Shown: positions 2,745 to 34,533 of the stretch, piece by piece
How positions within the stretch are numbered: the first letter of the stretch is position 1
Layout: every line of letters begins with the position of its first letter
Source of the DNA: Aquabacterium sp.
GTDB lineage: Bacteria > Pseudomonadota > Gammaproteobacteria > Burkholderiales > Burkholderiaceae_C
Length of the DNA: 64,000 bases
NCBI RefSeq assembly: GCF_041915145.1
Contig: NZ_JAYSBZ010000003.1
Span: 5,831-69,830, forward strand
Reading direction: 5' to 3'
The notes under the pieces: model-generated
Told to the model about the DNA's origin: nothing
The model's input: only the letters and a program-made list of their open reading frames with translations
The model's database searches: none
Program-made: the position numbers and the translations under genes

Positions 2745-4168
2745 CTACTGGGCGACCTCTTGAATTTTCCCATTTCCAACGAATGTGCTGTAGGCCTCAA
2801 ACATGGCTCGAAGCACGTCCGTGGGGTCGAGCAGCGAGCCCACGATTTGGCTGTCACCTTCTTGTGCACGCAACAGGCGGATATCCGCATCTCGCCCAAT
2901 CTCCTTGATGCGCGACTTCACTTCCTTGTCGTTGATCTTGTCGAAGCCAGCGAACACGGCATCGTCACCGCTGTGCTCTTCTTCCAGCTCGGTCATCGCT
3001 GCCAGCGTGCTTTCCAGCTCGGCATTCAGCCGGTCCAGCTCGGCCTGCTCGGCGGCGAAGTGGTGTTGCACCAGCAGCGCCTTGGGCACCAGGTCGCAGG
3101 CCCAGCCTTTGTCCACGGTCTTGCCGGGTGAGCCGTCCTTGTTCTTCTTGGTCTCCAGCACGCGGTAGGGCGTGGCCCTCCAGCCGTCTTCGGCGATCAG
3201 GTAAGTGTCGTCCTGCATCGTCTCGGCCCAGTAGTCCATCAGGTGCTGGTAGATGGCGTAGGGATCGATCAGCTTCTCAGCGGTGGGCTGGTGCTCGTAG
3301 TGGGCCAGCAGGCCCTCGGCACCTTTGATCAGGTCTTTCGGCTGGAAGCTGCCCTTGTCCAGCGACTTCAGGCGCTCCACGGCTGACGCGCGCCATTGGT
3401 CGAAGTGCGCGTTCATGGCCTCTGTGAAGGCCTGGAACTCTGGGTGCTGGTGGATGGTGGGCTTGATGGCCGCCGGCGCGACGGCCAAGTCCAGATAGCC
3501 CGGCCGACGAGGCTTGAAAAGGGCCGCTCGCAACTGCGGGCACACCGCCCAGTAGCGGGCCAGTGCCTGCACGTCCGCCTCCGGGATGCCACCGTTCAGG
3601 TGGGCGTCGATGTCCTGCTGGTCTTCCGGCGTGCTGCTGTCGATGTAGCGCGGCAGGTTCAGGTTGAAGTCGTTCTTTTCGATCTCTTCCAGCCCCACCA
3701 TACGGGCGTAGCGCGGGTCGCTGCCGTCCAGCGTCGTGAAGGCATCGACGATGCGGTGGATGTCGCGCTCGCGCAGCCGGTTCTTGGGGCCGTCCTTCAT
3801 GAAGCCTTGCGCGGCATCTATCATGAAGATGCCCTTGCGGGCGGCAGCGCCGGCCTTGTCGATGACGAGGATGCAGGCCGGGATGCCGGTGCCGTAGAAC
3901 AGGTTGGCCGGTAGGCCGATGATGGCCTGGATGAGGCCACGCCGCACCAGGCTCTTGCGGATCTCGGCCTCGGCATTGCCACGGAACAGCACGCCGTGCG
4001 GCAGGATGCAGGCAGCCCGGCCGGTGCTCTTGAGCGAGCGGACAATGTGCAGCAGGTACCAGAGCCATGCTCGTCGCGGATGCACTGGGCTACGAGTGAA
4101 GACAAGTGCTGCGTATCGATGGACTTGATGACTGCTGCTTCGGCTTGGGGGACATTCAGAGTACCCAT
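2745..4168 (-). pseudogene. hsdM: Type I R-M methyltransferase (HsdM-like) remnant: only the C-terminal half plus a long C-terminal extension; N-terminal catalytic part missing and a frame change near the 5' end
   Basis: Frame B (2745..4085) reads AWLWYLLHIVRSLKSTGRAACILPHGVLFRGNAEAEIRKSLV...IIGLPANLFYGTGIPACILVIDK...NDFNLNLPRYIDS, typical of the post-NPPF part of N6-adenine MTases. I found no FxGxG or NPPF/NPPY motif anywhere upstream. An SD-preceded ATG at 4168 opens a different frame (MGTLNVPQAEAAVIKSID...) that overlaps frame B. Frame B itself has only a GTG start, at 4085. Confidence 0.65.
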
Positions 4169-4229
4169 CGTTTCAACTCCTGTTCGCTGCGCTTTGATCT
4201 TTCGAGTCCGTCTGGTCAGAGCCAGGATT

Positions 4230-4724
4230 TCAGCCAGGAGACCACCGCTGAAGGCGGGCCATCACCTCTGCGCGCGGCAATCGCCGTCGTGGGTGGTTCC
4301 ATATGCGCGAGAGACCCTCATGCAACGTGGCCACGCCAACCGCGCCGGAGGCTTCCATCTGATCGAGGATCCACAGCAGCCCATAGACCGTGCAATGGCG
4401 GGCTTGCGCCTCATTGCGCAGAAGCATGTCCCCTGAAACCAGCGCATGATCCTGACGTCGGGCGCAACTGAGGGCGAAGCAGTCCGGCAACGACAAGCCT
4501 GGCCGCTGCTTGCGAACCTGTTGGGCGTAGTCCACCTCATCCGGGTTGAGAGCCACTACGCCCAGGCCAAGTCGCCGCAGCAGGGGGCCGTTCTCGGATT
4601 CAAGCTCGCGCTGATACAGCAGGTCTGGAACAACCATCGTCAGACCGCATGCGAAGGCCTGCTCCAGGAGCCCGCCTCGCTCCAGGTCGATCAAGACAGA
4701 GGTGTCTGAGACCAGGATGATCAT
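4230..4724 (-). CDS. PIN-domain nuclease-like protein
   Basis: The N-terminus is MIILVSDTSVLIDLERGG (PIN motif with the first Asp), with further conserved-looking acidic positions in LSLPDCFAL and LVSGDMLLR. The start is 6 nt after the stop of the upstream XRE-ImmA gene. Confidence 0.75.
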   Translation of the reverse strand: MIILVSDTSVLIDLERGGLLEQAFACGLTMVVPDLLYQRELESENGPLLRRLGLGVVALNPDEVDYAQQVRKQRPGLSLPDCFALSCARRQDHALVSGDMLLRNEAQARHCTVYGLLWILDQMEASGAVGVATLHEGLSRIWNHPRRRLPRAEVMARLQRWSPG

Positions 4725-4730
4725 GATCGG

Positions 4731-5798
4731 TCAGGCGAATTGACCCATCAGCCGACGATCCAGCTCGCGAACGCTGATGTTCAGTAGCTCTGCAGCTCGT
4801 GCCTCCGAAATCGCGCCCTCGGCAACGGCTCGCATGCAAAGGCGCTCCATCCGTAGTGGTACCTCCGCCTTGAGCGTGCCCGGTTCATTGGACGCTTGAC
4901 TGTTCCACCCCATGTCCTTGATCTGCGCCCACAGGCGCCCGTACACCGCTTTGGTGATGATCCCAAGCTGGGCGCATCGCACAACCAGCGATGCAATGCT
5001 GACCTTGAACAGCTTCTTCAGCTCGGCCAGCTCGCCGATGGAAATGGAGGTACGGTGGGGCCCGAGCAGCCGGAGAACCATATCCTTGGCCATCAAGAAG
5101 GCCCCAGCAAACCGATCGGCGGCCTTCTCTTGCTCGGCGTCGGTAAGACCACTGAAGCGAAGCACCAAGTGGGCAAGCTCGTGGGCCAGCGTAAACCGTT
5201 GGCGCTCCCCGTTGTGCCCTTGGTTTACTACGATCACTGGCACGTCTTGGCGTTCAGGGCGTTGAACGAAGGCCTTGGATCCGGACACGTTTTCCGGCAG
5301 GTCTAAGGCGATCACCTTGACGCCCTTGTCCTCAAGCAACTCGGCCATGAACGGGATCGGGTCAATGCCAAGCTTCCATAGCCGGCGCAAGGCGTCGGCT
5401 GCCTGCTCGGCGTCCTCGATGCTGCCAATTTCGAAAGCTTGGTTGTCCGGCGCAACCCAGAGCTGTTCCACACCGGGCAGTAGCTCCTCCAGCTCCAAGT
5501 AGCGCTCGACCTGGTCCAGTACGGATGCTTCCACGGCACGCTCCTCCTTGGCGCCGGCATGGGGCGCCTTCCGAAAGTCCACGCCCGTCAGCTCGATCTC
5601 GCGCTCACTCAACAGGTACTCAGGCGACACCTGCAAGGCCTTGGCCATCGCCAGCAGGATGGTGGAGCTCGGCATCATTTCGTCGCGCTCATACTTGCCG
5701 ATGGCCTGAGCCGAGACCTGCCCCTGGATGGCGGCCTCCAGTTCGCGCAGCGACAACCCGAGGGCCTCTCGCGCCCTCTTAAGTCGGTTTCCGATCAT
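4731..5798 (-). CDS. XRE-family HTH fused to an ImmA/IrrE-type zinc metallopeptidase
   Basis: It has an N-terminal HTH (IGNRLKRAREALGLSLRELEAAIQGQVSAQAIGKYERDE) and an HEXXH motif (FTLAHELAHLVL) in the central domain. I set the start at ATG 5798, which is preceded by GGAGAG. ORF-track entry 4731..5840 is the longer version. Confidence 0.85.
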   Translation of the reverse strand: MIGNRLKRAREALGLSLRELEAAIQGQVSAQAIGKYERDEMMPSSTILLAMAKALQVSPEYLLSEREIELTGVDFRKAPHAGAKEERAVEASVLDQVERYLELEELLPGVEQLWVAPDNQAFEIGSIEDAEQAADALRRLWKLGIDPIPFMAELLEDKGVKVIALDLPENVSGSKAFVQRPERQDVPVIVVNQGHNGERQRFTLAHELAHLVLRFSGLTDAEQEKAADRFAGAFLMAKDMVLRLLGPHRTSISIGELAELKKLFKVSIASLVVRCAQLGIITKAVYGRLWAQIKDMGWNSQASNEPGTLKAEVPLRMERLCMRAVAEGAISEARAAELLNISVRELDRRLMGQFA

Positions 5799-5891
5799 GG
5801 TGCTCTCCGCGGTGTTTGGTTTACAACTTGACGGCTCCAATTGTAGTTTGTAAACTTCCTCCCGTCAACTTCTTCGAACTGGAGGTTCGTG
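5799..5891. promoter_or_regulatory. Divergent control region with nested inverted repeats (candidate XRE operator)
   Basis: GTTTACAA (5819..5826) pairs with TTGTAAAC (5848..5855), and TTGACGG (5828..5834) pairs with CCGTCAA (5862..5868). An AACTT motif recurs 3-4 times. The region lies between the divergent XRE-ImmA and DUF2188-like genes. Confidence 0.5.
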
Positions 5892-6125
5892 ATGGCCAAC
5901 CGGAAAAACGTTCACATCGTTCAGCGCGAAAACGGCTGGGGCGCCCTCCGCGAGGGTGGGCAGCGCGCGACCCAGGTGTACGACACCCAGGCGCAGGCGA
6001 TCCAGGCTGGCCGGCAGATGGCACGCCAGGGTCAGGGCGAGCTGCTGATCCACGGCCAGGACGGGCGCATCCGGGCGCGTGACTCCTACGGAAACGACCC
6101 CTGCCCTCCGAAGGACAGCAAATGA
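5892..6125 (+). CDS. DUF2188-like small protein
   Basis: The sequence MANRKNVHIVQRENGWGALREGGQRATQVYDTQAQAIQAGRQMARQGQGELLIHGQDGRIRARDSYGNDPCPPKD matches my recollection of the DUF2188 pattern (HV.....GW......., IH..DG.I.....YG.DP.PP.D). GGAGG lies 6 nt upstream of ATG 5892. Confidence 0.7.
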   Translation: MANRKNVHIVQRENGWGALREGGQRATQVYDTQAQAIQAGRQMARQGQGELLIHGQDGRIRARDSYGNDPCPPKDSK

Positions 6126-6343
6126 TCAAGTTCGACATCAAGATGCCCAGCGCTGCCGATCTCATGCGCGCGGCAATGGCAGAGGTTGAGAGCGACATCA
6201 CCAAGAGGGCCCAAAGCGCGGCGGAACCGCACGGCGGCGTGACGGTGAGGTTCGAACGAAGTGCTGAGGGTGCAATCAGCGCCGTCAACTTCCAAGGGTC
6301 CGAGGCTGCCGTCGAGGCAGCCAGGGCTGCGATCGCCGACTGA
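6122..6343 (+). CDS. Hypothetical protein (73 aa)
   Basis: It has an ATGA start/stop overlap with the preceding gene and high-GC third positions. No family recognised. Confidence 0.55.
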   Translation: MIKFDIKMPSAADLMRAAMAEVESDITKRAQSAAEPHGGVTVRFERSAEGAISAVNFQGSEAAVEAARAAIAD

Positions 6344-6357
6344 AGCGGGCGCAGGAA

Positions 6358-6639
6358 ATGAGCGGCTGGCTTGAAGAGTTCTGGATAGTGCTCTGCCACT
6401 CAAGTAGGACACAGCTTGCGATCGCCTCCGGCCTGTTCTTCTTTGTCGGCATCTTGCTGATGGGGCAGGTTTTCGTCGGCAGTCTTGAGTTGCATGGTCC
6501 TTTGGCGGCACTCACCGGCGTTGTCCGGGAGAAGCTCATGCACCGTTACGACAAGGCGGCCTGGGCAGCGCTTGCCAGTTTCGGGCTGCTTGCCGTCAAG
6601 ACTTACCGCAAGGATCGCCGCCACCTTCTCGGGGCCTGA
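6358..6639 (+). CDS. Small membrane protein (about 2 TM)
   Basis: AGGA lies upstream of ATG 6358. Hydrophobic segments are LAIASGLFFFVGILLMGQVFV and AAWAALASFGLLAV. Confidence 0.5.
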   Translation: MSGWLEEFWIVLCHSSRTQLAIASGLFFFVGILLMGQVFVGSLELHGPLAALTGVVREKLMHRYDKAAWAALASFGLLAVKTYRKDRRHLLGA

Positions 6640-6670: not shown

Positions 6671-7033
6671 ATGGCCTGCGCAGCTGAACACGCCGCCTTC
6701 AATTTCGTCGCGGTTATGGCCGCAACCGCCGCTGTGCAACAGCACAACGGGCGCCCCGTCGAGGGGTCTGCACTTGCCATGGGGGCGGCAGCAGCGCTGC
6801 TGCCCTCACTTCCTGATGTCTTGGAGCCTGCGATCCATCCGAATCACCGCCGGTTCTTTCACAGTTTGACGTTCGCCATTGCAGTCGGATATGGCCTCCA
6901 CAGGGCGTATAAGTGGGAGGCGCAGGAGCCGTGGGAGCAGTTGGCTAGGATGGTAGCGCTGGTGGCCGGCGCTGCGTATCTGGCGCATCTGGCGCGCGAT
7001 GCATTCACCGCCCGTTCCTTGCCATTGGTTTGA
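6671..7033 (+). CDS. Short membrane protein with a YdjM/DUF457-like metal-hydrolase motif
   Basis: GGGAG lies upstream of ATG 6671. The motif LPDVLEPAIHPNHRRFFHSLTFA resembles the D...H..HR..THS signature of DUF457. The protein is 120 aa, shorter than typical family members. Confidence 0.4.
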   Translation: MACAAEHAAFNFVAVMAATAAVQQHNGRPVEGSALAMGAAAALLPSLPDVLEPAIHPNHRRFFHSLTFAIAVGYGLHRAYKWEAQEPWEQLARMVALVAGAAYLAHLARDAFTARSLPLV

Positions 7034-7090
7034 TCGTTGCTGACCTTCAGGAAAGTTGGCGGCTGCTTCTGACCCAAATAGGAAGTGATC

Positions 7091-7936
7091 ATGGAGTTTG
7101 GCACGTCTTCCATTTCGTTTGTCCGTCGCGGGTTTCGTTGGATTTACGGCGTGGTCGAAAAGATCATGTGCCAGCGGGCCTACGAGATCTCCACGCTCTA
7201 TCACGACCATCGTGAACTGGTTGAGACAAAGCCGCGTCCATTGGGTGAGCATGTCGGCTACCGACTCTACTGGCAGGAGTTTCTCCAGGGACAGCGGCAA
7301 CTGGCACCGACGATCGAAGTGTGCGCCATAGGCAAATCACGGCTCTCCAAGGTCGTCATCGCGGTCACAGCGTCGAATGACATGGTTTGCTTTCAGAATG
7401 AGGTGGTGATGCGGCATGTGGACACACGGCGGCATCGCGCGCCACTCTCGTCAATACCCTTCCGGCGACCGAGAATCGATGGCGGACTGGTCTATACGCC
7501 CTACGATGAATTTCATATCGAACTCATTGAGGTACTCGACGAACGCGGTGGGTGCATAACACCAAGATGGTCGACAAAAGATGTAATCCACCCGATGGAC
7601 CGACTTGAGGTCGCGCTCGGGCAAGAGCGTGATTTCGTCGAAAAATGGGGGCAAACCTACAACCTGAGCTTCCTTGAGATGGAAATTCGGGAAGAGGCTG
7701 TTCGAATGTTTGCCTGGTCTTTCCGCAAATCCCATGTCCTGCGCCTGCTCCTGCGTCCTCTTCAGAGCCACACTATGGCGAAGGCCATCTTTTGGAGTAG
7801 GAACGCACTGCGTGCAGCCCCGCTTGAACGCGCATTCATTCGTCACATCGAAGAGTACAGAGACTATCTGGCGCGACAAGCTGATCGCAGCATGACGCCT
7901 CTCGCTGAAACCGTGGCTGAAACGAATATGTCATGA
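7091..7936 (+). CDS. Hypothetical protein (281 aa), translationally coupled to jetA
   Basis: AGGAAG lies 7 nt upstream of ATG 7091. Its stop TGA (7934..7936) overlaps the jetA ATG (7933..7935) as ATGA. No domain recognised by eye, and it looks lower in GC than the jet genes. Confidence 0.65.
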   Translation: MEFGTSSISFVRRGFRWIYGVVEKIMCQRAYEISTLYHDHRELVETKPRPLGEHVGYRLYWQEFLQGQRQLAPTIEVCAIGKSRLSKVVIAVTASNDMVCFQNEVVMRHVDTRRHRAPLSSIPFRRPRIDGGLVYTPYDEFHIELIEVLDERGGCITPRWSTKDVIHPMDRLEVALGQERDFVEKWGQTYNLSFLEMEIREEAVRMFAWSFRKSHVLRLLLRPLQSHTMAKAIFWSRNALRAAPLERAFIRHIEEYRDYLARQADRSMTPLAETVAETNMS

Positions 7937-9369
7937 CCACGGCATTCTTCATCGGTAAGCGGGAACAATTTTTCCGACCGCTGACCCATGGCGACCGCGA
8001 GTGTTGCGCTGCCGTTCTGCGCAGTCTGTACGACCGCGTGCAAGGCCCGAATGCGGACTACTCCGAGGCGCTGACCCGTGATCTGGTGTTGACCATCGTC
8101 TTTCAGGTCCTGGCTGATCCATCCCTGAGAGCTGTCGTGTTCGAGCCAGGTCGCACGGTATCGGCCGAGGATGAGCGGACCTATGCGGGTGAACTGTTAC
8201 GCAAGCTGAAGGAGCATGGCTGGATCGAGGACTACAAGGACCCGATCGACCTCAAGCCCACGCTGAAGATGACGCGGGCCGGCAAGGAGGTGTCCGAGGT
8301 CCTGTCTAACCTCGACAACTCCCGGGCCCGCACCCGCCAGAGGAACATGCGGTCCGCGAAGAAGGCTCTCGCCGCGTTCGTCGCCAGCCAGGACGTGGAC
8401 GAACTGCTCGATGGCTACGACTTTGCCGCGCGGGTGGTGCAAGACCTGCAGGACGACATCGAGTACTTCCGCCTGCTCATCCAAAGCCTGACGCGCGAGG
8501 CCCTGGAACAGAAGGTCGCGTGGAGCGAATTCAACGAGTTCATCGAGAAGCGCTTTGCCAAGGAATATGCGGTCCGCCTCGTGGCCGACTCTGCGGAGCG
8601 GCACCGCGGACAGATCGTGGAGCTGCTGGACCAGATCCGGTTGATGCCGGAGGCGGCACGCCTGGGCGTGGATGCCAACCTGCTGCAGCGCGCGTCGTGG
8701 CTGGAGGCGCAGGTGCAGTCTCGCAGCCCCACCCTGTGGCTGTGTGATCGTATGGAAAGCATGGTCGAAGCCGCTTGCAACCTGAAGTTGCCCATGCTGC
8801 GGTCCGAGATGAACAACTATGTCCGGCGGTTCACCAGCTTGCTGCGGCAGGCGCTTTCCCTGGACTACAGCGCGACATCACCGCTGGGTCGGGCGATGAG
8901 CTTGCTGAAAGAACAGCCGCAACCGGAGCGCGAAGATTTCCTGGATGCCCTGGCGGCCCGATTGGGGACGGCAGAGCTGAGACTGCCCGGCGCCGCGTTG
9001 CGTTGGACGGTGCGCGACCGCGAGGCCGAACACGGCCCGCTTGCTCCCCTGATCGTGGACGAGGCCAGTCGTATCGAGGCAGCCATGCGCCGGGCCGAAG
9101 CCGAAGCCTTTGCCTTCAGCGACCAGGAAGTGCTGGCTGGATTGCTGCCCCATCTGCGCGACGGACGGGTGTCCCTGGACCAACTGCCCATCAACAATGC
9201 AGTCGAGGCGGTGCGTGTCATGCATGCCGTGGGTGCTGCTCGCTCCAGCGAGGGGAAGCGTTTCCTGAAGGCCCGCAAGAAGGCAGAGGTGTTCGATACG
9301 CCGTACTTCTCCGCAGACAACTTCGAGCTGGAAGCCGATCTGTCGGCGCTGGCCCGTGGTGACACTTGA
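7933..9369 (+). CDS. jetA: Wadjet JetA (kleisin-like subunit)
   Basis: A 478-aa protein, first of four overlapping genes whose sizes (478/248/1225/404 aa) and order match jetABCD. It has no enzymatic motif, as expected for JetA. The call rests on operon context. Confidence 0.7.
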   Translation: MTTAFFIGKREQFFRPLTHGDRECCAAVLRSLYDRVQGPNADYSEALTRDLVLTIVFQVLADPSLRAVVFEPGRTVSAEDERTYAGELLRKLKEHGWIEDYKDPIDLKPTLKMTRAGKEVSEVLSNLDNSRARTRQRNMRSAKKALAAFVASQDVDELLDGYDFAARVVQDLQDDIEYFRLLIQSLTREALEQKVAWSEFNEFIEKRFAKEYAVRLVADSAERHRGQIVELLDQIRLMPEAARLGVDANLLQRASWLEAQVQSRSPTLWLCDRMESMVEAACNLKLPMLRSEMNNYVRRFTSLLRQALSLDYSATSPLGRAMSLLKEQPQPEREDFLDALAARLGTAELRLPGAALRWTVRDREAEHGPLAPLIVDEASRIEAAMRRAEAEAFAFSDQEVLAGLLPHLRDGRVSLDQLPINNAVEAVRVMHAVGAARSSEGKRFLKARKKAEVFDTPYFSADNFELEADLSALARGDT

Positions 9370-10102
9370 TTGGCCGATCCACATGCTGCTATCTCTCCAA
9401 CAGGTCATCGAAGAGCGGCTGAAGACCGAAGGCGCAGGCAACGTCAAGTCGGACCGGTTCGCCGAGCTCGCGGGGCGGCTGATGGCCTCGGGTGTCTTGT
9501 GGCGAGACTATTCCCGCCCCGAGTCTGAGCTGTATGACGACGCCGCACAGTGCGAGCAACTGCTGCGCGAGTACTTCTCAACGATCGGCTTCGTCCTGAC
9601 GCACGATGCCGACGCGACGATATTCCGCCTGTATCCGCCCGGCGAAGGGGGTGACGGCGACGAGGACGGCGTGAAGCGGCTGAAGGCGCGGCTGTCGCGT
9701 GACTTTGTGGCCGCGGCCATTGCCCTGCGCTTCCTGTACACCGAGGCGCTGACCGGCAAGCGTGAGCTGATCAATGAAGTGCTGGTGATCAGTCTGGAGG
9801 AGCTTTCCCAGTCGGTCGTATCGCTGTTGGCGCACCAGCTTCCGTCTTCGGTGGCCGACCGCCTCTCGCTGCTGAGAGACCTGCGCAAGCACCGCATCGT
9901 GCGCTTCAACGATGGTGAAGGTGCCGGCGGCATGGAGATGCTTCTGAGCGTTCTTCGGCCCGTGATGAGCTACGTGAGCGACGAGGCGCTGGAGGATGCG
10001 CTCGCGCTGGCCGCGCAAGCCGTTGCGGGGCGCGCGAAACGTGGACAGTCCGCGGAGACCCGGACTGACGCACCCGAGGTGCCGGCGGAGGAGAGCCGAT
10101 GA
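9356..10102 (+). CDS. jetB: Wadjet JetB (KITE-like subunit)
   Basis: A roughly 240-250-aa acidic protein between jetA and jetC. Its stop overlaps the jetC start (ATGA at 10099). The start is uncertain: GTG 9356, overlapping the jetA end, or ATG 9383. Confidence 0.7.
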   Translation: MVTLDWPIHMLLSLQQVIEERLKTEGAGNVKSDRFAELAGRLMASGVLWRDYSRPESELYDDAAQCEQLLREYFSTIGFVLTHDADATIFRLYPPGEGGDGDEDGVKRLKARLSRDFVAAAIALRFLYTEALTGKRELINEVLVISLEELSQSVVSLLAHQLPSSVADRLSLLRDLRKHRIVRFNDGEGAGGMEMLLSVLRPVMSYVSDEALEDALALAAQAVAGRAKRGQSAETRTDAPEVPAEESR

Positions 10103-13100
10103 AGATCTCCAAGCTCATCACCTGGCAATGGGGTTCGCTGGAGGCCAGGGAGTGGCCATTTGCCGACACGGTGTTGCTGACGGGCGAGTCGGGATCGGGC
10201 AAGTCGACCTTGCTGGACTCGATCCAGACGCTGCTCACAGCGGCGCACCACCACCTGGTGCAGTTCAACATCGGCCAGGACGAATCCACGCAAAGCCGGC
10301 GTGGTGGCAAGGAGCCTCGAACCTTAGCTGCCTACGCACTCGGTCAACAAGCTGACGGCGTCTTCCTGCGCAAGCGTTCGACGAGTTACGTGGCGCTGGT
10401 GTTCGAAGCCTCGGAAGGCGCGGGCGAAGAGGCGCAAGCCCTGACGGCCCTGATTGGCGTTGAGGCACACGAAGACGCTGCCAAGGCGGTGTTGTCACGC
10501 AGTCTCTTCTTCATCGTGCGCCGTGCGCTCGACCTGCAGCAGCTTCTACTGCGCACCGCAGACGGAATGCAGCCCGTTCCTGTGCCGGTCAAGGATCTCT
10601 ACCTGCATCTGCAACACCAACTGCGGGTTGGCCCCGAGGTCGTGCAGCGCTTCGAGGACAAGAGCAGCTACCTCACGCACCTGTACGGCGCCATGATGGG
10701 CAAGACGGCGGTATCGGAGCCTGAAGCCTTCCGTGCCGCGAAGTCGATCGTGAAGGCCATGGCCTACAAGGAGCTCGGAAACGTCAACGACCTGGTTCGA
10801 GACGAGATCCTGGATGCGCACGACTTCAGTCGCGACCTGGACAAGATGCGCGAACTGATGCGATCGATGGCCAGTCTCAAGGCTGAGGCCGAGCGCTTGC
10901 AGCAGAACATCGAGCGACTGGAATCCGTCGAGGCCGCAGCCACACGTGTCATCGACGATGCTCGCCGCTATGTCGTGCACTGCATCGCCCACTCGATCCG
11001 GGCATTGGACGAGGCTGAGACCGATCTGGAGTCCGTGCGTCGGCAGATGAAGTTCCAGCACAAGCGCAATCAGTTGCTGGAAGAGCGGCTGCAGGGCTTG
11101 CGCGAGGGCCAGGCGCAGCTGAATGAACAGTTGGACGGCATCAAGGCCAAACTCGCCGCCAGCGACGTGGCACAACGCAAGTCGGCGTTGGAGAGCGAGG
11201 TACGCACACTCCAGGACCAGTTCCGTCGTCACTGGGCAGCCATAGGTCAAGCCGCCAAAGGTCTGGCCAGCATGGTGGCCCAGATGGAGCGCCTGCTCGG
11301 CTTGGATCTTGCGGAAGCGCCGGCGCTGGAGGCTGCAGTGGCGGCGCTCCGACCGGCGGCCCAGGCCGTTCTGAAGCCGTGGCCTGAACTGTTTGCCATG
11401 TGCAGCCAGGAGGCCAGGCTGGACGCCGTGTTCCCGGCCTTTGACCTGGAAAGCTTCGACGGAGACCTCGGCCGGCTGGAACATGGGATCCGTGGCCATG
11501 ACGAGGCGCTGGCCGGCGCGGTCGTCATGGCCTTGACGACCGCGGGTCAGCAACTGGCCACCCTGGCGGACGACAAGGCGCAGCGCGACGCTGAATTGCG
11601 CCAGCTGCAGGCTGGCAAACCTCCTGCGCCTCCGGATGTGCGCACGGCTCTCGACCTGATCGAGCGAGAGCTGCCGCAGGCGCGGCCGCACATCCTGTCC
11701 CAACTCGTCGAACCCAAGGAGGGCAGCAGCTGGCAGAACGCGATCGAGGGCTACATGGGCGGCGACCGCTTTGCCTTGATCGTGGAGGCGGGATTCGAAG
11801 CGCCTTGCACACGCCTGGTGAAACGCCGGTTTCCTGTCCGCTCACCGAAGGTCGTGCAAGGAAGCAAGGCGATCGAAGACACGCGAGGTCGCTCGCTGGA
11901 TGCGCGAGCGGTGCTGAACGAGTTGGTCTGCCCGCACCCGGTGGCCAAGGCCTTCCTGCTTGCTCAGTACGGCAGGGTGCGCAAAGTGGACTCCGAGGAC
12001 GAGCTCGCACGAACACCCCAAGGTTTGATGGAGGAAGGCATCGGCAGCCGGGGCTACGGCATGTTCTCTTGCCGGGCATCCGACCACGACCTAGCTTTCG
12101 GCGAGGCAACGCGAAAGCGGCGTCTGGCCTGGTGCGAGCAGGAGTTGTCGCGCCTGACCGTGGAGATCCGCAAGATCGAGCATCTCCAGAGCTCGTTGAA
12201 CCTGGTCCTGCGCATGTTCAACGGTGCTGCATTCACAGCCTTGGCGCCCTTGATGGAGGCTGTCCTCAGCAGCCAGCTGCAGTATTCCCATGCCGCACAG
12301 GCGCTTGCAGCGTTGGATCTGTCAGCGATCGAAGACCTGGAGGCGCAGCGGCGCCAGATCGAGGCCAGCATCGGTGAGTCCAAGAAGGCGTACGACACGG
12401 AAATTCTGCAGGTCGGCGAGAACAACAAGACCCTGAAGGACATGGGGGGGCGCGAGAAGATCCTGGTGGACCGAATTCCAGCCCTGCAGTTGGAACGCAC
12501 CAATGCCATGGTCTGGGCCAGCCGCTTCGTCCAGGGCGCGCCGGAACTTGCGACCGAGTCGCAGTTGATCGATGAGGCCAGAGACCTCGCCGACAGTGCC
12601 GAGGTGACACTCGACGCGCTGCGTCATCGGGTCAGCGTTCTCGTTGAACGATTGCCCACATCGTTGCGCGAGCTGTCTTCTTGCGTCCAGACCTACCTGG
12701 TCGGCGTTCGAAATGACCAAGAGCGGTTCCTGTACACCGACCCGCCCAAGAGTTTCGACCGCATCGAGGCACTGCTGCCGCCCGTGATCGGGCTGCGACA
12801 GGTCGTGACCGAGCAGACACGTCGTCAACGGTCCATCGGCCTGGCCGAGAACCTGACGAAACTGAGAGAGGCGGAGTCCAGCTTCAACGCGGTGTTCACC
12901 ACCAGCTTCTGCTTCAAGGTGCGCGATGAAGTTCGCCAGGGGGCATCCACGCTGCAGAAGCTCAACCGGGAGTTGAAGAACATCCGATTCGGCACCGACA
13001 CCTTCGAGCTGGAATGGGCTTGGGTGCCGCGGCTGCAAAAGGTGTTCGAGTTCTTCGAGGCCATGGAAGGATTGGTGGACAGTCTGGAGAAGGACAGCGG

Positions 13101-13776
13101 ATCCATCTTCGACTCACCCAGGCTGAGTGACGAGCACCGGCTGACGGCACAGGACATCCGTCGCTTGTTGCTGGCCAATGACCAAGGCGCCTCGGAGCGT
13201 GCCCTGAAGGAACTTGCTGACTATCGCAACTACCGCCGCTATGACATCATCCGGCACAGCCCTGTCGGGCAGACCAAGTTGTCCACCTGGGGCACCGGAT
13301 CGGGTGGCGAGCTGGAAACACCGTTCTACGTCATCCGCTCAGCCGTGTTGGCACACGCGCTCGGGCACTTCGGCCGTGATCGCCGCGGCGCGCCGGCCCT
13401 GCGCCTGATGTTGTCAGACGAGGCGTTCTCCAAGATGGATGAGTCTCGGTCCCGCAGCGTGCTTCAGTTCTTGTCGCGGAGCCTGGGCTTGCAGCTGGTG
13501 GTGGCCATGCCGACTTCAAAGTCCGGGGCCGTCAAGCCGGAGTTCGACAAGGAGTTCACCTTCTCCAAGGTGCTGGCTTCCCGTGATGGCGCCGAGCTGT
13601 TCGTCAGCGAGGTTCAGGAGAAGACGCTCAAGCGTGAGCCCTTGGCCAGGCTCTGGGCAGCCCACGCGGAGCAAGCCCGGGAATCCGGGCGACTGGCTCA
13701 CGAAGCCATGCAACGAGGGAACGCGCCGTCTGAAATTTCGGACATGCCGAGACCGGTGACAGGCGGAGATGACTGA
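10099..13776 (+). CDS. jetC: Wadjet JetC (SMC/MksB-like ABC ATPase)
   Basis: It has an N-terminal Walker A (LLTGESGSGKSTLLDSIQ), a roughly 900-aa predicted coiled-coil middle rich in E/Q/L/R, and a C-terminal Walker B (LRLMLSDEAFSKMDE). Length is 1225 aa. Confidence 0.9.
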   Translation: MKISKLITWQWGSLEAREWPFADTVLLTGESGSGKSTLLDSIQTLLTAAHHHLVQFNIGQDESTQSRRGGKEPRTLAAYALGQQADGVFLRKRSTSYVALVFEASEGAGEEAQALTALIGVEAHEDAAKAVLSRSLFFIVRRALDLQQLLLRTADGMQPVPVPVKDLYLHLQHQLRVGPEVVQRFEDKSSYLTHLYGAMMGKTAVSEPEAFRAAKSIVKAMAYKELGNVNDLVRDEILDAHDFSRDLDKMRELMRSMASLKAEAERLQQNIERLESVEAAATRVIDDARRYVVHCIAHSIRALDEAETDLESVRRQMKFQHKRNQLLEERLQGLREGQAQLNEQLDGIKAKLAASDVAQRKSALESEVRTLQDQFRRHWAAIGQAAKGLASMVAQMERLLGLDLAEAPALEAAVAALRPAAQAVLKPWPELFAMCSQEARLDAVFPAFDLESFDGDLGRLEHGIRGHDEALAGAVVMALTTAGQQLATLADDKAQRDAELRQLQAGKPPAPPDVRTALDLIERELPQARPHILSQLVEPKEGSSWQNAIEGYMGGDRFALIVEAGFEAPCTRLVKRRFPVRSPKVVQGSKAIEDTRGRSLDARAVLNELVCPHPVAKAFLLAQYGRVRKVDSEDELARTPQGLMEEGIGSRGYGMFSCRASDHDLAFGEATRKRRLAWCEQELSRLTVEIRKIEHLQSSLNLVLRMFNGAAFTALAPLMEAVLSSQLQYSHAAQALAALDLSAIEDLEAQRRQIEASIGESKKAYDTEILQVGENNKTLKDMGGREKILVDRIPALQLERTNAMVWASRFVQGAPELATESQLIDEARDLADSAEVTLDALRHRVSVLVERLPTSLRELSSCVQTYLVGVRNDQERFLYTDPPKSFDRIEALLPPVIGLRQVVTEQTRRQRSIGLAENLTKLREAESSFNAVFTTSFCFKVRDEVRQGASTLQKLNRELKNIRFGTDTFELEWAWVPRLQKVFEFFEAMEGLVDSLEKDSGSIFDSPRLSDEHRLTAQDIRRLLLANDQGASERALKELADYRNYRRYDIIRHSPVGQTKLSTWGTGSGGELETPFYVIRSAVLAHALGHFGRDRRGAPALRLMLSDEAFSKMDESRSRSVLQFLSRSLGLQLVVAMPTSKSGAVKPEFDKEFTFSKVLASRDGAELFVSEVQEKTLKREPLARLWAAHAEQARESGRLAHEAMQRGNAPSEISDMPRPVTGGDD

Positions 13777-14983
13777 GGCCTGGTTCCAACCGACGGGATC
13801 ACCCGGTGACCTTGGTCCGCCACGCGATCCGATGCTCTTGCGTGTCGCCTCCCGGCTGCTCGCCAAGGCCGAGCGTTCAAACGACCCGCGCAGCACGCGG
13901 CTGAGGCTGGATCAGCGCGAGTTGCCCGAATTGCACGGGCAAGTCCATGCAGAGGCCGTCGGCCGCGTGGAATTGCTGCTGCGGGAGTTGTGCGGCACGG
14001 GGTGGGTCCGGTTGATCCTGGCCCCAGAGCGGGAGTTTGCCGGCTTCGTCGATCGCAAGCCACAGCTGGAGTTGATGGATTTCGATGCCCTGGCGGCATG
14101 GGCTGGCTACGCTCGTCGGGCGGACCACTGGCAGCGCCGTCTCGCCGCGCATCTCGAACAACACTGGGTAGATTCCGACGATGGTGCGAAGCGGTCGCTG
14201 ATCGACTACCTGAACCGCAGCCCTCTCTCTGCGCTGTCGACGGTTTCCACCGAGGAGGCCGCGCGCTGCCTTCACGACCTCCGAGAGCTGTGCCTGTCCG
14301 GGGCGGCCATGCCGTTGCGCGAGGCATCGGCGCGTGTGTTCCACGGCAGATCGAAGGTGCTCGACACCAGAGACGAACTGCTGCGGCTCCTGGGTGCGAC
14401 ACCCGGGCAGTTTTGGGAGGCGCCCATACAGTTGCTGATCGATGTTCCTGCCTTCTTCGACGAGGCGCTGTTCATCGAGAACCTGGTGACCTTTGAACGG
14501 ATGGCGGACGCGAGAGCGCCCGAATGGCAGCACAGCCTCCTGGTCTATGCCGCCGGCTTCAAGGGGAGTGCGAAGCGTCTTCGACATCGCGGTGGTTGTC
14601 GGGTTTACCTCCGGACGGCGATGACCGGTGCGCTGTCGGTGGACCCGCCCTCGGCACGAGGTCTGGCTGTTGTCAGCGATTGGCTGTTTGATCGCGCAGA
14701 TCTTCCTGTACGGTTCTTCGGCGACCTGGACTACGCCGGCATGCAGATCCTTGCCAGCCTGAGAGAGGTGTTTCCCGATGCGATGGCTTGGCAGCCGGGC
14801 TATGCAGACCTCCTGGCGGTCCTTGCTTCAGGCGGAGGGCATATCCCGGAGACGGCGAACAAGGAGCGGCAGGCAGACCCTGAAACCACGGGGTGTGCTT
14901 ACGCAGACGAAGTTCTTCTGACCGCACTTCGCGGTGCTGGGCGGTTCGTTGACCAGGAGGCGTTCGGGGCGGATCGGCAGTGA
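13769..14983 (+). CDS. jetD: Wadjet JetD (Toprim-type nuclease subunit, DUF2220-like)
   Basis: It overlaps the jetC end by 8 nt. The C-terminal motif VRFFGDLDYAGMQILASLR is the GDxD Toprim signature typical of JetD/MksG. Length is 404 aa. Confidence 0.85.
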   Translation: MTEAWFQPTGSPGDLGPPRDPMLLRVASRLLAKAERSNDPRSTRLRLDQRELPELHGQVHAEAVGRVELLLRELCGTGWVRLILAPEREFAGFVDRKPQLELMDFDALAAWAGYARRADHWQRRLAAHLEQHWVDSDDGAKRSLIDYLNRSPLSALSTVSTEEAARCLHDLRELCLSGAAMPLREASARVFHGRSKVLDTRDELLRLLGATPGQFWEAPIQLLIDVPAFFDEALFIENLVTFERMADARAPEWQHSLLVYAAGFKGSAKRLRHRGGCRVYLRTAMTGALSVDPPSARGLAVVSDWLFDRADLPVRFFGDLDYAGMQILASLREVFPDAMAWQPGYADLLAVLASGGGHIPETANKERQADPETTGCAYADEVLLTALRGAGRFVDQEAFGADRQ

Positions 14984-30287: not shown

Positions 30288-30893
30288 ATGGTGCAGCAAC
30301 CCCACGAGACGCCGACCACGCGCACGCTCTTGCTGCAAGCCGCGGCGGCCGAGTTCATCGAATTCGGCTTTGGCGCCACCGACACCAACCGCATCGCCCG
30401 GCGCGCGGGCTTTGCCCCGCAAACCTTCTATCGCTGGTTTACCGACAAGGCCGAGATCTTCATCGAGGTGCTCGGCATCTGGGAAGAAGCCGAGCACGCC
30501 ATCCTCGAAACCATCTTTCTGCAGCCGCCGCTGCCCAGCGAAGAACTGGCCGAAGCCTGCGTCGAAAGCACGCGGTCCTTCTTGATCTTCCGGCGCAACC
30601 TGCGCGCCTTGTCGATCGACCACCCGCAGATCCGCCAAGCCCGCGCCGCCGGCCGCAAACGGCTGCTGCGCCAGCTCAGCCAGTGGAACCCTCACATCGA
30701 CGCCGAAGAGCTCGCCTCGCTGCTGATTCAGTTCGAGCGGCTCTGCGAAGCCTTGGCCGAAGGCGAGTTCGAAGACCTGGGCCTGAGCGGCCGCGCCTCG
30801 CTTAAGGCGCTGGCCCGCATCATCGATGCGATGCGGCATGCGCCAGATGGGCCGAAGAAGAAGCGGGTGGCGGCCAAGAGGGTGCCGCGCTGA
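30288..30893 (+). CDS. TetR-family transcriptional regulator
   Basis: ATG 30288 lies 2 nt after the hydrolase stop. The TetR HTH is LLQAAAAEFIEFGFGATDTNRIARRAGFAPQTFYRWF. Confidence 0.85.
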   Translation: MVQQPHETPTTRTLLLQAAAAEFIEFGFGATDTNRIARRAGFAPQTFYRWFTDKAEIFIEVLGIWEEAEHAILETIFLQPPLPSEELAEACVESTRSFLIFRRNLRALSIDHPQIRQARAAGRKRLLRQLSQWNPHIDAEELASLLIQFERLCEALAEGEFEDLGLSGRASLKALARIIDAMRHAPDGPKKKRVAAKRVPR

Positions 30894-31111
30894 GGGGATT
30901 GGCTGCTGATGCGACAGAGCGGCTGGGGCTGCTGTCAAAAGCAGACACATCTTGGCAATCACTATCAGGCCTCACATCACGCAACCGTCGAGACGACGCC
31001 CGAATCTAAAGATTACATAGCGCGGCCCGCTGCTAAGGACGACGTTGGCTCACATAATTAAAGTAGCAGCGGAGTCTGCTGACCTCGTGAAAAAACCTGA
31101 AGGCCCAAAAC

Positions 31112-32404
31112 ATGATCACGACCCTACTGCTTGATGACTGGAAGAGTTATGCAAGCTCTAGATTGCAGATCGACGCAATAACTGTGGTCATTGGAACCAA
31201 CGCAAGCGGTAAGTCCAATGCTTTAGATGCGTTAGCTTTCCTGAATCGCCTATCGACAGGTGCCCTCTTGAGTTATGCGCTGCAAGGTGACAGCAACCTA
31301 GCACCGTTGCGAGGTGGCGTTGAGTGGGCGGCTCGTAGGCCTGCTAATTCCTTCAGTGTGGGCGTTGTCTGTCAGGCCGATGATCGGCTGACCGAGTTTC
31401 ACTACGTACTTGGCTGCTCGGTACACGATGGTCGATGCGATGTCCTGTCCGAGGAACTTACCAGACGCCGCTTCAAGTTGACCAAGGGTGAGCGGAAAGT
31501 TGAAACCGGTAAGGTGCGTTTGCTCTGGACTGATCCATGCGAGTTGCGCTCGCCCACGATTGTCGTTCGCCTATATAACGGCAAGAGTGGTACGAAGCGG
31601 GATTTGGCGAGAGCGCAGCCGGCGCTATTTCAGTTGTACGGTCAGAAACTTCCTCAGGACACCGATGTGGGCGTCAATGAGGTCATCAGGTCCCTACGAG
31701 ATATCTTCGTTTTGGACCCCATCCCGTCTCATATGAGAACCTACTCTCCGCTCGCAGACAAGCTCGACTCCGACGCGCGCAACATTGCCGGAGTCATCGC
31801 GGCAATGCCTGCATCGCAAAAGGCCGAAATTGAGCGAGTACTGAGCCAGTACGCTGCGAAGCTTCCCGAGCGTGACATCAAGCGGGTCTATGCCGATCCA
31901 GTAGGCAAGTTCGGTTCGGACGCGATGTTGTATTGCGAAGAAGAATGGGGGGGAACCGAGAACCCTCCAACTGTAGATGCGCGAGGAATGTCGGACGGCA
32001 CGTTGCGCTTCCTGGCCATCCTGACGGCACTCCTGACGCGCCCCAAAGGTAGTCTGCTGGTCATTGAGGAGGTGGACAACGGGTTGCACCCATCTCGAGC
32101 GAGCATGCTGCTACAAATGCTCAAGGACGTAGGAGCGACCAGGGAAGTAGACGTTCTCGCAACCACCCACAACCCAGCACTCCTGGACGCTATGGGCAGT
32201 CGCATGGTTCCATTCATCACAGTTGCACACCGCGACCCGACCAACGGGCACAGTGTTCTAACTCCCCTGGAAGACTTGGCAGACCTTCCTCGGTTGCTTG
32301 CGCAAGGGTCGATAGGCCGCCTCTCTAGCCGGGGTTTGATTGAGCGCAGCCTTCAGGAGCAGCTTCCCCTTGAGTTCGCTGATGGCGTGGCAGCTCATGA
32401 GTAA
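31112..32404 (+). CDS. ABC-type AAA ATPase (AAA_15/AAA_21-like, RecF/SMC-head fold), no fused nuclease domain
   Basis: It has Walker A (VIGTNASGKSNALDAL), a signature-like motif (MSDGTLRFLAILTAL), Walker B (LLVIEEVDNGLHP) and an H-loop (LATTHNP). By hand count the first 60 nt are 27/60 G+C, far below neighbouring genes. Confidence 0.85.
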   Translation: MITTLLLDDWKSYASSRLQIDAITVVIGTNASGKSNALDALAFLNRLSTGALLSYALQGDSNLAPLRGGVEWAARRPANSFSVGVVCQADDRLTEFHYVLGCSVHDGRCDVLSEELTRRRFKLTKGERKVETGKVRLLWTDPCELRSPTIVVRLYNGKSGTKRDLARAQPALFQLYGQKLPQDTDVGVNEVIRSLRDIFVLDPIPSHMRTYSPLADKLDSDARNIAGVIAAMPASQKAEIERVLSQYAAKLPERDIKRVYADPVGKFGSDAMLYCEEEWGGTENPPTVDARGMSDGTLRFLAILTALLTRPKGSLLVIEEVDNGLHPSRASMLLQMLKDVGATREVDVLATTHNPALLDAMGSRMVPFITVAHRDPTNGHSVLTPLEDLADLPRLLAQGSIGRLSSRGLIERSLQEQLPLEFADGVAAHE

Positions 32405-32912
32405 ACGTGTTCTGATCATCGACACATCGGTGCTTTGCTGCTGGTTGAAAGTACCTGGCAAGGACACCGCGGGGCCAGATGGGGACACGTGGACCTACGA
32501 GCGAAGCGAACAAGTTCTGAGTCAAGCTATCAAAGACGGGGCTACTCTTGTACTGCCGTTGGCCGCGCTTATCGAGACGGGAAACCACATCGCACAATGC
32601 AACGGTGACCGCTACCTCCTTGCCGGGCAACTTTCCAGACTACTAACTGAATCGGTAAACGGCAGAAATCCTTGGGTGCCGTTCTCCGGGCAGGAAGAAC
32701 TATGGGGCCGTGAAGCGCTTCTAAGGCTCGCCGATTCATGGCCTGCGCTTGCCGCAGGGGGCACCAGCATCGCTGATGCGACGATCAAAGACGTTGCAGA
32801 GTTTTATGCTGAAACAGGGCTCCACGTTGAGATCGTTACTGGCGACCAAGGATTGCGTGCATATACCCCCGCTGCGCCTGTCGTTCGTCCCCGTCGGCGT
32901 GGTGGAATGTAG
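32397..32912 (+). CDS. PIN-like nuclease domain protein
   Basis: ATG 32397 overlaps the ATPase stop (ATGAGTAA). The four acidic PIN positions are plausible: VLIIDTSVL, ALIETGNH, SIADATIKD, IVTGDQGL. The protein is 171 aa from this start; the ORF track's longer version begins at 32340. Confidence 0.7.
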   Translation: MSKRVLIIDTSVLCCWLKVPGKDTAGPDGDTWTYERSEQVLSQAIKDGATLVLPLAALIETGNHIAQCNGDRYLLAGQLSRLLTESVNGRNPWVPFSGQEELWGREALLRLADSWPALAAGGTSIADATIKDVAEFYAETGLHVEIVTGDQGLRAYTPAAPVVRPRRRGGM

Positions 32913-33210
32913 CCATGAGAGTCGACCCCGATGTGCTGAGGCTTCTTGCCCTCTGCTGGCACGAGTGCATGGACGAGACTTCGAACACAACTCATTCATC
33001 AGGCACCAGAAAATGGGCGCCATGACTTAAAGAGTGAAAGGCGGATTGGGGACTTTGGGGCGAAAGAGCAAGCCCCACAACCCCATCCATGAGCACTCCC
33101 GCCCGGATCGCGCAGCCCCTCATGCCTGTTCGTCAACTTCCCCATCCCGTCAGCCCTCGCCGACCAACAGCGACCTGATCAATCACCACAGTGCGTGCTG
33201 CGCAAGAGCG

Positions 33211-34533
33211 ATGCGGTGCCCCACAAGGTCTTGCCCGAGCAACCCGGCAAGGCCCAAGCAGACTCGGCACAATCGAAGCCCGTTTGACTTCGACTCGAAA
33301 GACCCGGCGATAAACCCGCTGCGCGAGGTTTGGGCCCAACGGCCGTTTGTGCGTTTCTGGCTGTCGCGTCTGGCCGGTATCACGGCCAATCAGATGCTGA
33401 TGGTGGCGGTGGGTTGGCACATGTACGACCTCACGTCGAGCGCCTGGGACCTGGGCCTGGTCGGGCTGTTTCAGTTCGTGCCGGCCCTGGTGATGACGCT
33501 GCCCGCCGGGCACGTGGCCGATCGCCACCACCGGGCCCGCATCTTCGCCATCAGCCTGTTTGCCCAGGCCTGCGTGGCCGGGCTGCTGCTGTGGGCCACC
33601 GAGACGGGGCACGCGTCGCGCACCTTGATCCTGGCCCTCTCGGTGGTGCTCGGCTTGGCACGGTCATTCCAGATGCCCGCGCAGCAGGCCTTGACGCCGC
33701 TGCTGGTGCCCAGCCGCTTGCTGCAACAGGCGATTGCGCTGAGCTCCAGCGGCATGGAGATCGCCGTCATCTGCGGCCCGGCCCTGGGCGGCTTGCTCTA
33801 CACCCTGGGCGCCGCGGCGGTGTACCTGACCTGCGCCACCTTGCTGACCGTGGCGGCCGCGCTGGCCTTGACGGTGCGCTATGCCTTCGCGCCCGGCACC
33901 CACTCGCGCTCCTGGCGCGACATCTTTGCCGGACTGCATTTCGTGTGGGAGCGCAAGGTGCTGCTGGGCGCGACCACGCTCGATCTGTTCGCCGTGCTGC
34001 TCGGCGGCGCCACCGCCCTGCTGCCGATCTTTGCTCGCGACATCCTGCACACCGGCCCCGTCGGGCTGGGCCTGCTGCGCGCCGCGCCTGCGGTGGGCGC
34101 CTTGTCGATGTCGCTGGTGCTGACGCGCTGGCCGCTGGAGCGCCGCGTGGGCCCGCGCCTGCTGGCTGCCGTGGCGGTGTTCGGGCTGGCCACGCTGGTG
34201 TTCGGCCTGTCGTCGAGCTTCTGGTTGTCGATGCTGGCCCTGGCCGCCACGGGCGCGGCCGACAACATCAGCGTCGTCACGCGCCTGACGCTCACGCAGC
34301 TCGAAACGCCCGACGACATGCGTGGCCGCGTCGCCGCCGTCAACTCGATCTTCATCGGCGCGTCGAACCAACTCGGCGAGTTCGAATCGGGCTTCACCGC
34401 CGCCCTGTTTGGCGCGGTCGGCTCGGTGGTGCTGGGCGGCGTGGGGTCGATGCTGATCGCCGCGCTGTGGGTCAGGTTGTTCCCGAGCCTGGCTCGACGC
34501 GATCGCATGAGCCACGACGCACCCGCGCCGTAA
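33211..34533 (+). CDS. MFS transporter (MFS_3/EntS-like)
   Basis: It has about 12 hydrophobic segments, with FWLSRLAGITANQMLMVAVGWHMYDLT and PAGHVADRHHRARI motifs typical of this MFS subgroup. The start is uncertain (ATG 33211 chosen; ORF open from 33034). Confidence 0.7.
   Translation: MRCPTRSCPSNPARPKQTRHNRSPFDFDSKDPAINPLREVWAQRPFVRFWLSRLAGITANQMLMVAVGWHMYDLTSSAWDLGLVGLFQFVPALVMTLPAGHVADRHHRARIFAISLFAQACVAGLLLWATETGHASRTLILALSVVLGLARSFQMPAQQALTPLLVPSRLLQQAIALSSSGMEIAVICGPALGGLLYTLGAAAVYLTCATLLTVAAALALTVRYAFAPGTHSRSWRDIFAGLHFVWERKVLLGATTLDLFAVLLGGATALLPIFARDILHTGPVGLGLLRAAPAVGALSMSLVLTRWPLERRVGPRLLAAVAVFGLATLVFGLSSSFWLSMLALAATGAADNISVVTRLTLTQLETPDDMRGRVAAVNSIFIGASNQLGEFESGFTAALFGAVGSVVLGGVGSMLIAALWVRLFPSLARRDRMSHDAPAP

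Follow-up and report, generated by a model that had tools for sequence, protein, structure and literature searches.

A small islet of low G+C content lies between a TetR-family regulator gene and a major facilitator superfamily (MFS) transporter gene in a stretch of Aquabacterium sp. DNA of 64,000 nucleotides (nt), here called the window, in which coordinates are given unless another locus is named. It carries two co-directional open reading frames (ORFs), one for an ABC-type ATPase of 430 amino acids (aa) and one for a predicted PIN-like nuclease of 171 aa. Judged by sequence comparison, the locus is a further member of PDC-M07, a candidate defence family already catalogued in PADLOC, and not a new kind of system. 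The features of the locus are as follows; comparison loci from other genomes are designated by L and a number.

30288-30893, forward strand: TetR-family regulator (TetR_N, E 6e-13), resident left flank, outside the module
30910-33262, no strand: low-GC islet of 2,353 bp between the TetR and MFS genes, delimited by the homology break with L090 and by low GC
30910-31111, forward strand: upstream non-coding leader of the cassette, of which only the last ~60 nt (from 31053) are shared with the nearest cassette, L007
31112-32404, forward strand: PDC-M07A ABC-type ATPase (AAA_21), 430 aa, from PADLOC, Pfam, invariant motifs and Foldseek
32397-32404, forward strand: ATGAGTAA start/stop overlap, read from the sequence
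32397-32912, forward strand: PDC-M07B PIN-like nuclease (predicted), 171 aa, from PADLOC, an AlphaFold2 (AF2) model, Foldseek and invariant residues
32913-33262, no strand: non-coding DNA that closes the islet downstream of the pair, without conservation at other cassette loci
33310-34533, forward strand: MFS transporter (MFS_1 and MFS_3, E ~1e-34), resident right flank, outside the module

Direct reading of the sequence showed that the ATPase and partner ORFs overlap by 8 nt, and this start/stop arrangement suggests translational coupling of the two genes. A second in-frame ATG at 32382, 15 nt upstream of the partner start at 32397, was used in one gene call (P0001, 176 aa), but homologues of the partner consistently start at the MSKRV position, favouring ATG 32397. 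Another ORF of 93 aa (32749-33030) is probably spurious. No sigma-70-like site was detected in the leader by a consensus scan. After the stop codon of the PIN gene, a single terminator-like site was found (33454-33467), which lies outside the islet, and the total number of such sites was no higher than in shuffled sequences.

The composition of the islet is foreign to its surroundings. Its GC content is 56.6%, compared with 65.8% in the whole window, and the GC fraction is 0.50-0.60 across about 30900-33300 and 0.64-0.74 to either side. The first 60 nt of the ATPase gene contain 27 G or C, and GC at third codon positions (GC3) is 0.61 in the ATPase gene and 0.55 in the partner gene, against 0.85-0.92 in the flanking hydrolase, TetR and MFS genes. 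Exact-protein look-ups yielded no more than two short metagenome contigs, both identical to the window, so the comparison with sites lacking the cassette was made through TetR homologues, using metagenome contigs L089-L091 from a close relative (TetR 93% identical). L090 DNA aligns to the window at about 88% up to 30909 and at 91% again from 33263, which places the islet at 30910-33262.

In this relative the same TetR-MFS site holds another insert of 1,040 bp (L090 3402-4441; also in L089 and L091), whose GC content is 55.7% (flank, 69.7%). Its product is a protein of 228 aa that, by inspection, has a PEP-CTERM-like C-terminus (PIPEP, a hydrophobic stretch and KRK). More distant relatives have still other genes after TetR, and the hydrolase-TetR pair is kept in relatives without the cassette. 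Together with the foreign composition, these differing inserts indicate horizontal acquisition of the two genes at an intergenic position of variable content, a minor hotspot where unrelated cargo is inserted. Nucleotide similarity with other cassettes is restricted to the two coding regions and ~60 nt upstream, so the mobile unit appears to be essentially the gene pair itself. Neither an integrase nor a transfer RNA (tRNA) gene marking the islet was found, no tRNA gene is present anywhere in the window, and the direct or inverted repeats flanking the islet are only short and at chance level.

An earlier note on this DNA, made from its letters alone, had described a low-GC, horizontally acquired pair joined by the ATGAGTAA overlap, with 27/60 G+C at the start of the ATPase gene, sited between the TetR and MFS genes. 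The exact recount, the GC and GC3 shifts, the domain matches of the flanking genes and the L090 site bear out this description. The islet that the note had drawn at 30894-33030 is real, while its borders had to be moved to give the slightly larger segment 30910-33262.

Past the right-hand border lies the MFS gene. Its start codon (33310-33312) is ATG in L090 and reads ATA in the window, and for this reason the insertion of the islet may have changed the 5' end of the gene. Alternative starts in the window are GTG 33034, inside islet DNA and giving a 92-aa extension, or GTG 33349, with the loss of 13 residues.

The family assignment is based on matches over nearly the full length of both proteins. 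The ATPase matches the PDC-M07A model of PADLOC-DB v2 (PDLC04391) with E 1.4e-159, covering residues 1-417 of 430 and model positions 1-408 of 412, and the partner matches PDC-M07B (PDLC04394) with E 1.9e-44, covering residues 3-159 of 171 and model positions 2-151 of 154. The two genes are adjacent on one strand in the A-then-B order, so that the same two families occur here in the same order, with no family-level difference. PDC-M07 was defined by Payne, Hughes, Fineran and Jackson in 2024 as one of 145 untested phage defence candidates (bioRxiv 10.1101/2024.01.29.577857), where Table S8 assigns CAS_00050 (FAM_00005>>FAM_01367, 406 RefSeq instances) to candidate PDC-M07. PDC-M07 goes back to genes lying within BREX, DISARM or type I restriction-modification (RM) systems (bioRxiv 10.1101/2024.01.29.577857). 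The window copy differs in being solitary, not embedded in another system, while the type I RM embedding was reproduced independently in the loci compared here (see below).

The ATPase belongs to the ABC clade, with Pfam matches to AAA_21 (104 bits, cut-off 27) and AAA_15 (54 bits, cut-off 32.1) and weak matches to RecF and SMC_N; no nuclease domain was detected in it by Pfam. The motifs are a Walker A at G28-S35 (GTNASGKS), a signature at M293-SDG (293-296), a Walker B at L315-LVIEE followed by the D-loop D322 (residues 315-322), and the H-loop H353. None of these motifs varies among 53 orthologues. The AF2 model is of moderate quality, with a mean predicted local distance difference test (pLDDT) of 68.7 and values below 50 in the C-terminal 40 residues. 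Foldseek matched it with probability 1.0 to Rad50 heads, which were the top matches, and to Septu PtuA, the retron-Eco7 ATPase, an OLD nuclease and PARIS AriA. Other PADLOC matches were HEC-01A (E 1e-39), AriA (PDLC02980, E 3e-29) and AbiLi (E 8e-24), and these sequence relationships place the ATPase in a HEC-01/AbiL-like clade.

The relation of the partner to PIN proteins is visible only in its predicted structure. No match was found at E<=0.1 in Pfam, NCBIfam or PHROG, and a PDB profile search gave a single chance-level match (E 0.65). The AF2 model of the partner has a pLDDT of 88.4 and a predicted template-modelling (TM) score of 0.82. Its best Foldseek matches in the PDB (top 25) are, by their descriptions, almost exclusively PIN or VapC/FitB-type proteins, with probabilities of 0.96-1.0 for the top 8 and 0.33-1.0 over the top 25, and target-normalised TM scores of 0.5-0.68. 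Residues D9, E60, D127 and D150 form the acidic tetrad of PIN proteins; they are invariant in sets of 38 and 53 sequences, and relative to the predicted strands 4-8, 50-52, 93-94 and 143-147 they lie where a PIN tetrad is expected, at the ends of beta1, beta2/alpha, beta3/alpha and beta4. The partner therefore has the fold and the tetrad of a PIN protein, while a curated PIN sequence model does not recognise it; the model points to a PIN/VapC-like fold with a D-E-D-D tetrad and to a predicted nuclease activity.

Several features of the partner family were not seen in the VapC structures that it matched. These are an invariant C14 followed by Cys or Val at position 15 (Val in 16/53) and W16, a conserved loop at residues about 17-33 (VPGKDTAGP...W), and an invariant C-terminal PRRR tail (165-168) predicted to be disordered. 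A conserved ETGNH is found at residues 60-64.

The pair has a wide but patchy distribution. At E<=1e-3 the partner has over 1,000 related cluster representatives in a collection clustered at 90%, and 760 representatives at 50% clustering with the same threshold. One representative, P0486 (2,006 aa, with nine matched stretches), was a false positive: the protein is repetitive and resembles adhesins. Relatives occur in 478 of 185,579 species genomes from at least six phyla, including Proteobacteria, Firmicutes, Bacteroidota, Cyanobacteria, Desulfobacterota and Acidobacteria, and across this range they are still 49-60% identical. The pair was not found in E. coli genomes.

The ATPase gene was located directly upstream of the partner gene and on the same strand in all of the 86 fetched loci with a partner relative (86/86); the intergenic distance ranges from -23 to +110 nt. 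Sequence identities between loci, computed pairwise for the ATPase and for the partner, are correlated (r = 0.80, 53 pairs), a value reached in 0/999 Mantel permutations; the two genes are strictly co-inherited and co-evolving. A third conserved gene was also considered and rejected, as clustering of 1,141 neighbouring ORFs left only the ATPase and the partner common to the loci.

These results bear on the remaining claims of the earlier note. The complete set of ATPase motifs, the lack of a nuclease domain in the ATPase and the four acidic positions in the partner had been read correctly, and two of the tests that it had named, structure prediction of a PIN fold and a survey of conserved pairing, gave positive results. 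Its claim of an undescribed system did not survive: it had itself named a profile match to a named system as decisive, and the full-length matches to PDC-M07A and PDC-M07B refute the novelty. The architecture of an ATPase plus a PIN protein is not new either, since HEC-03 was already shown to defend (bioRxiv 10.1101/2024.01.29.577857).

The neighbourhoods of the pair in other genomes showed defence-type associations, recurrent in type I RM operons and occasional in prophages. A model of the type I specificity subunit (HsdS) was matched by up to 8 of 138 immediate-neighbour ORFs (~72 loci scanned). L015 shows the full order hsdM-hsdS-[ATPase-PIN]-hsdR, and L055 and L065 have arrangements homologous to it. 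A PLD+SNF2 helicase, similar to DrmD/BrxH, is located upstream of the pair in L012, L021 and L037. In several RM-embedded loci a protein of ~545 aa with Schlafen/AlbA_2 and HATPase_c_4 domains is encoded between the PIN gene and hsdR, as a second embedded passenger, at these positions:

L014, 10610-12061: Schlafen/AlbA_2 + HATPase_c_4 gene
L024, 2895-4526: Schlafen/AlbA_2 + HATPase_c_4 gene
L025, 10545-12185: Schlafen/AlbA_2 + HATPase_c_4 gene
L068, 10592-12289: Schlafen/AlbA_2 + HATPase_c_4 gene

One related pair is located in a P2-like prophage, flanked by tail gene S and baseplate gene V, and the copy in P. aeruginosa is found between a Pf filamentous prophage and higBA. The idea of a mainly prophage-borne cassette was dropped because carriage by phages and plasmids is rare (counts below), and the P2-like and Pf-adjacent cases were regarded as anecdotes. 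In the P2-like prophage loci a 406-aa gene immediately precedes the pair on its strand (L001 5140-6360; L002 909-2129). It had no Pfam or PADLOC match, and could represent a further moron or defence gene.

HEC-01/AbiL is one of the described systems closest to PDC-M07. HEC-01A is homologous along the whole ATPase (hhalign probability 97.7%, 367 columns), the C-terminal LAQG..G.L...G motif is common to both proteins, and the HEC-01 and PDC-M07 ATPases are both FAM_00005 in Table S8 (bioRxiv 10.1101/2024.01.29.577857). The partner differs: instead of the DUF4276 (AbiLii-like) protein of HEC-01/AbiL, a protein with a PIN fold is encoded, for which Pfam and PADLOC gave no DUF4276 match. From the whole-length homology of the ATPases and the difference between their partners, PDC-M07 looks like a HEC-01/AbiL-type ATPase whose effector has been swapped from DUF4276 to a PIN-like protein. 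HEC-01 gave no protection in the study by Payne and colleagues (bioRxiv 10.1101/2024.01.29.577857), and protected against at least one phage in another study (PMC12881386).

HEC-03 shares the architecture and the presumed logic of PDC-M07, with an ABC ATPase (HEC-03A) followed by a small VapC-like PIN protein (HEC-03B). It reduces plaquing in E. coli, with both genes required, and is toxic on induction or over-expression (bioRxiv 10.1101/2024.01.29.577857). Membership of the present pair in HEC-03 was nevertheless rejected on comparison of the published sequences with the present profiles, in which neither the partner nor the full-length ATPase is homologous. The published HEC-03B and the present PIN profile align with an hhalign probability of 0.07%, and the partner has no match to the HEC-03B model at E<=0.1. 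HEC-03A, of which the ~400 residues printed in the supplement were used, is annotated as DUF3696, and only 64 columns of its C-terminal ABC core align to the present ATPase. By these comparisons, PDC-M07 converges on the HEC-03 architecture.

Two further systems combine an ABC-clade ATPase with a small nuclease. In PARIS the ATPase is a scaffold that, on sensing a trigger from the phage, sets free a nuclease that cleaves tRNA. Its components are the ABC ATPase AriA and the TOPRIM nuclease AriB (PMC11464382). AriA is among the PADLOC and fold matches of the present ATPase, although the likeness is limited to the ABC core, and the PARIS effector is a TOPRIM/DUF4435 protein and not a PIN protein; the partner had no AriB or DUF4435 match in Pfam or PADLOC. 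WonAB, from the WASA-1 prophage of Vibrio cholerae, has an ABC ATPase and a PD-(D/E)xK nuclease and acts by abortive infection (PMC12137116). It stops translation without DNA degradation, and its nuclease needs the active ATPase, to whose dimerised C-terminal extensions it is predicted to bind (PMC12137116). The two-gene layout of WonAB is like that of PDC-M07, but its nuclease has a different fold and no sequence relation to the partner; by analogy, WonAB is a plausible template for the mechanism of PDC-M07.

Given these likenesses, together with the family identity, the strict pairing, the intact active sites, the RM and prophage contexts and the foreign composition, the islet probably carries a self-contained two-gene module of family PDC-M07 directed against phages or other mobile elements. 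The complex, trigger, RNA target and defence phenotype proposed for PDC-M07 are drawn by analogy with HEC-03, WonAB (PMC12137116) and PARIS (PMC11464382 and established knowledge). Like other defence ATPases of the ABC clade, the ATPase probably forms dimers or larger assemblies; it would sense the infection and would hold or control the PIN-like nuclease. A phage-derived trigger would shift the state of the ATPase, and the nuclease would then be released or activated and cut RNA, most likely tRNA, ribosomal RNA or messenger RNA as VapC-type PIN proteins do. Translation would stop and the infection would be aborted. The nuclease could act after release, as in PARIS, or could require the active ATPase alongside it, as in WonAB. 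Speculatively, the two proteins could contact each other through the LAQG..G.L...G motif on the ATPase side and the PRRR tail on the PIN side.

Several observations weigh against a defence role. The ATPase model (pLDDT 68.7) is too poor for oligomerisation or the partner interface to be read from it, and the match of the partner to the PIN fold is consistent yet weak (best Foldseek E 5e-3), with no Pfam PIN match and no meaningful PDB sequence match. The islet stands isolated in the window, ~16 kb from a Wadjet system and without integrase, tRNA or flanking repeats. Carriage was recorded in 0/50,697 phage records, in 1/72,556 plasmids (Segatella copri) and in one IMG/VR contig. The RM-embedded cases are mostly from Betaproteobacteria and may stem from few independent events. 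No published experiment on PDC-M07 was found and its name is absent from main texts in the searchable literature, while other PADLOC candidates failed in assays, namely PDC-M63 and PDC-S04 (PMC12409345) and four of the eight candidates in a second study (PMC12881386). PDC-M07 was not among the PDC candidates assayed in either study (PMC12409345 and PMC12881386), and neither a description of its partner as a PIN protein nor a phenotype for the family was found in the searchable literature.

The pair could instead be a toxin-antitoxin (TA)-like addiction module, in which a VapC-type PIN toxin is neutralised by the ATPase as a non-canonical antitoxin, and which would persist through killing on loss and stabilise the DNA around it, such as RM operons or prophages, with no dedicated anti-phage role. 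The solved folds closest to the partner are those of the VapC and FitB toxins, with the same acidic tetrad; the genes overlap and are strictly co-inherited, induction of HEC-03 is toxic, the cassette adjoins higBA in P. aeruginosa, and AAA_21 carries the Pfam description 'putative AbiEii toxin, Type IV TA system'. However, the gene order and the 430-aa ABC ATPase upstream are unlike VapB antitoxins, of which none is present at the locus, and Pfam detected no DNA-binding antitoxin domain (HTH, AbrB or RHH) in the ATPase. The partner also departs from VapC in its own insert (about 17-33), its C14(-C15)-W16 motif and its PRRR C-terminus, as well as in having no Pfam PIN match. In WonAB the nuclease needs the ATPase for toxicity, which excludes simple sequestration in that system (PMC12137116). 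A role in addiction is possible but rather unlikely, and TA and abortive-infection roles can coexist. Far less credible, and in our view very improbable, is a housekeeping or repair-type pair acting on the cell's own nucleic acids, similar to Rad50/SbcCD or RecF, or a decaying remnant without function. Rad50 heads as top Foldseek matches of the ATPase and its weak RecF and SMC_N matches would fit a repair role, but the distribution is patchy (478/185,579 species representatives), the composition is foreign, close relatives lack the pair at the same site and the ATPase has no coiled-coil insertion. Both ORFs are intact and their catalytic residues invariant, which argues against decay.

A more specialised form of the defence reading makes the pair a guard of RM systems, in which a PARIS-like ATPase senses anti-restriction proteins (Ocr- or ArdA-like DNA mimics) or the loss of RM and unleashes the PIN protein. 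This would explain the repeated siting between hsdS and hsdR and the embedding of the cassette in type I RM operons, and it has a precedent in PARIS (PMC11464382), whose AriA models (PDLC02980, E 3e-29) and AriA fold are matched by the ATPase. On the other side, the immediate neighbours are not RM genes in most loci, the window included, and the likeness to AriA is limited to the shared ABC core; we consider a guard role quite unlikely. It is also part of a bolder scenario, unlikely when taken as a whole, in which PDC-M07 would be an abortive-infection system with a PIN family unlinked by sequence to known PIN proteins and would act as a PARIS-like RM guard. A HEC-01-type ATPase detecting anti-restriction factors or another phage cue would free a PIN RNase, PRRR and Cys14(-Cys15)-Trp16 would serve as the latch, and PIN would be the third effector, after TOPRIM and DUF4276, to have been exchanged independently on a single sensor chassis.

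If PDC-M07 is active in defence, it would add an example of an ABC-ATPase sensor with a swappable nuclease to PARIS, Septu, Gabija, AbiL/HEC-01, HEC-03 and WonAB, as well as a PIN family invisible to Pfam. With an ATPase homologous to HEC-01A and a different effector, PDC-M07 and HEC-01 constitute a natural pair for the question of how a single type of sensor is coupled to different nucleases. In the window itself, the islet represents an ordinary case of an already catalogued candidate, acquired at a variable site between genes.

Other defence-related genes were observed elsewhere in the window. An apparently complete type I Wadjet system is located ~16 kb upstream of the islet (7933-14983, forward strand), with JetA at 7933-9369 (PADLOC E 5e-176) and JetB at 9356-10102 (E 1.6e-71). 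Behind JetB, the ORFs at 10099-13776 (1,225 aa) and 13769-14983 (404 aa) are putative JetC and JetD genes by size and position. Beside it, remnants resembling a defence island occupy 2745-5840 on the reverse strand. They include a type I methyltransferase ORF (2745-4085), which matches only the C-terminal part (about 300-690) of MTase_I models and is probably truncated, and a protein with a helix-turn-helix and an M78-peptidase domain (4731-5840), which matches PADLOC RmrA (E 2e-53) and CapP. Patches of low GC are found at about 2000-2800 and 6800-8000, and the unannotated ORFs of this region are located at 2082-2678, 4230-4724, 5821-6399 and 7085-7936.

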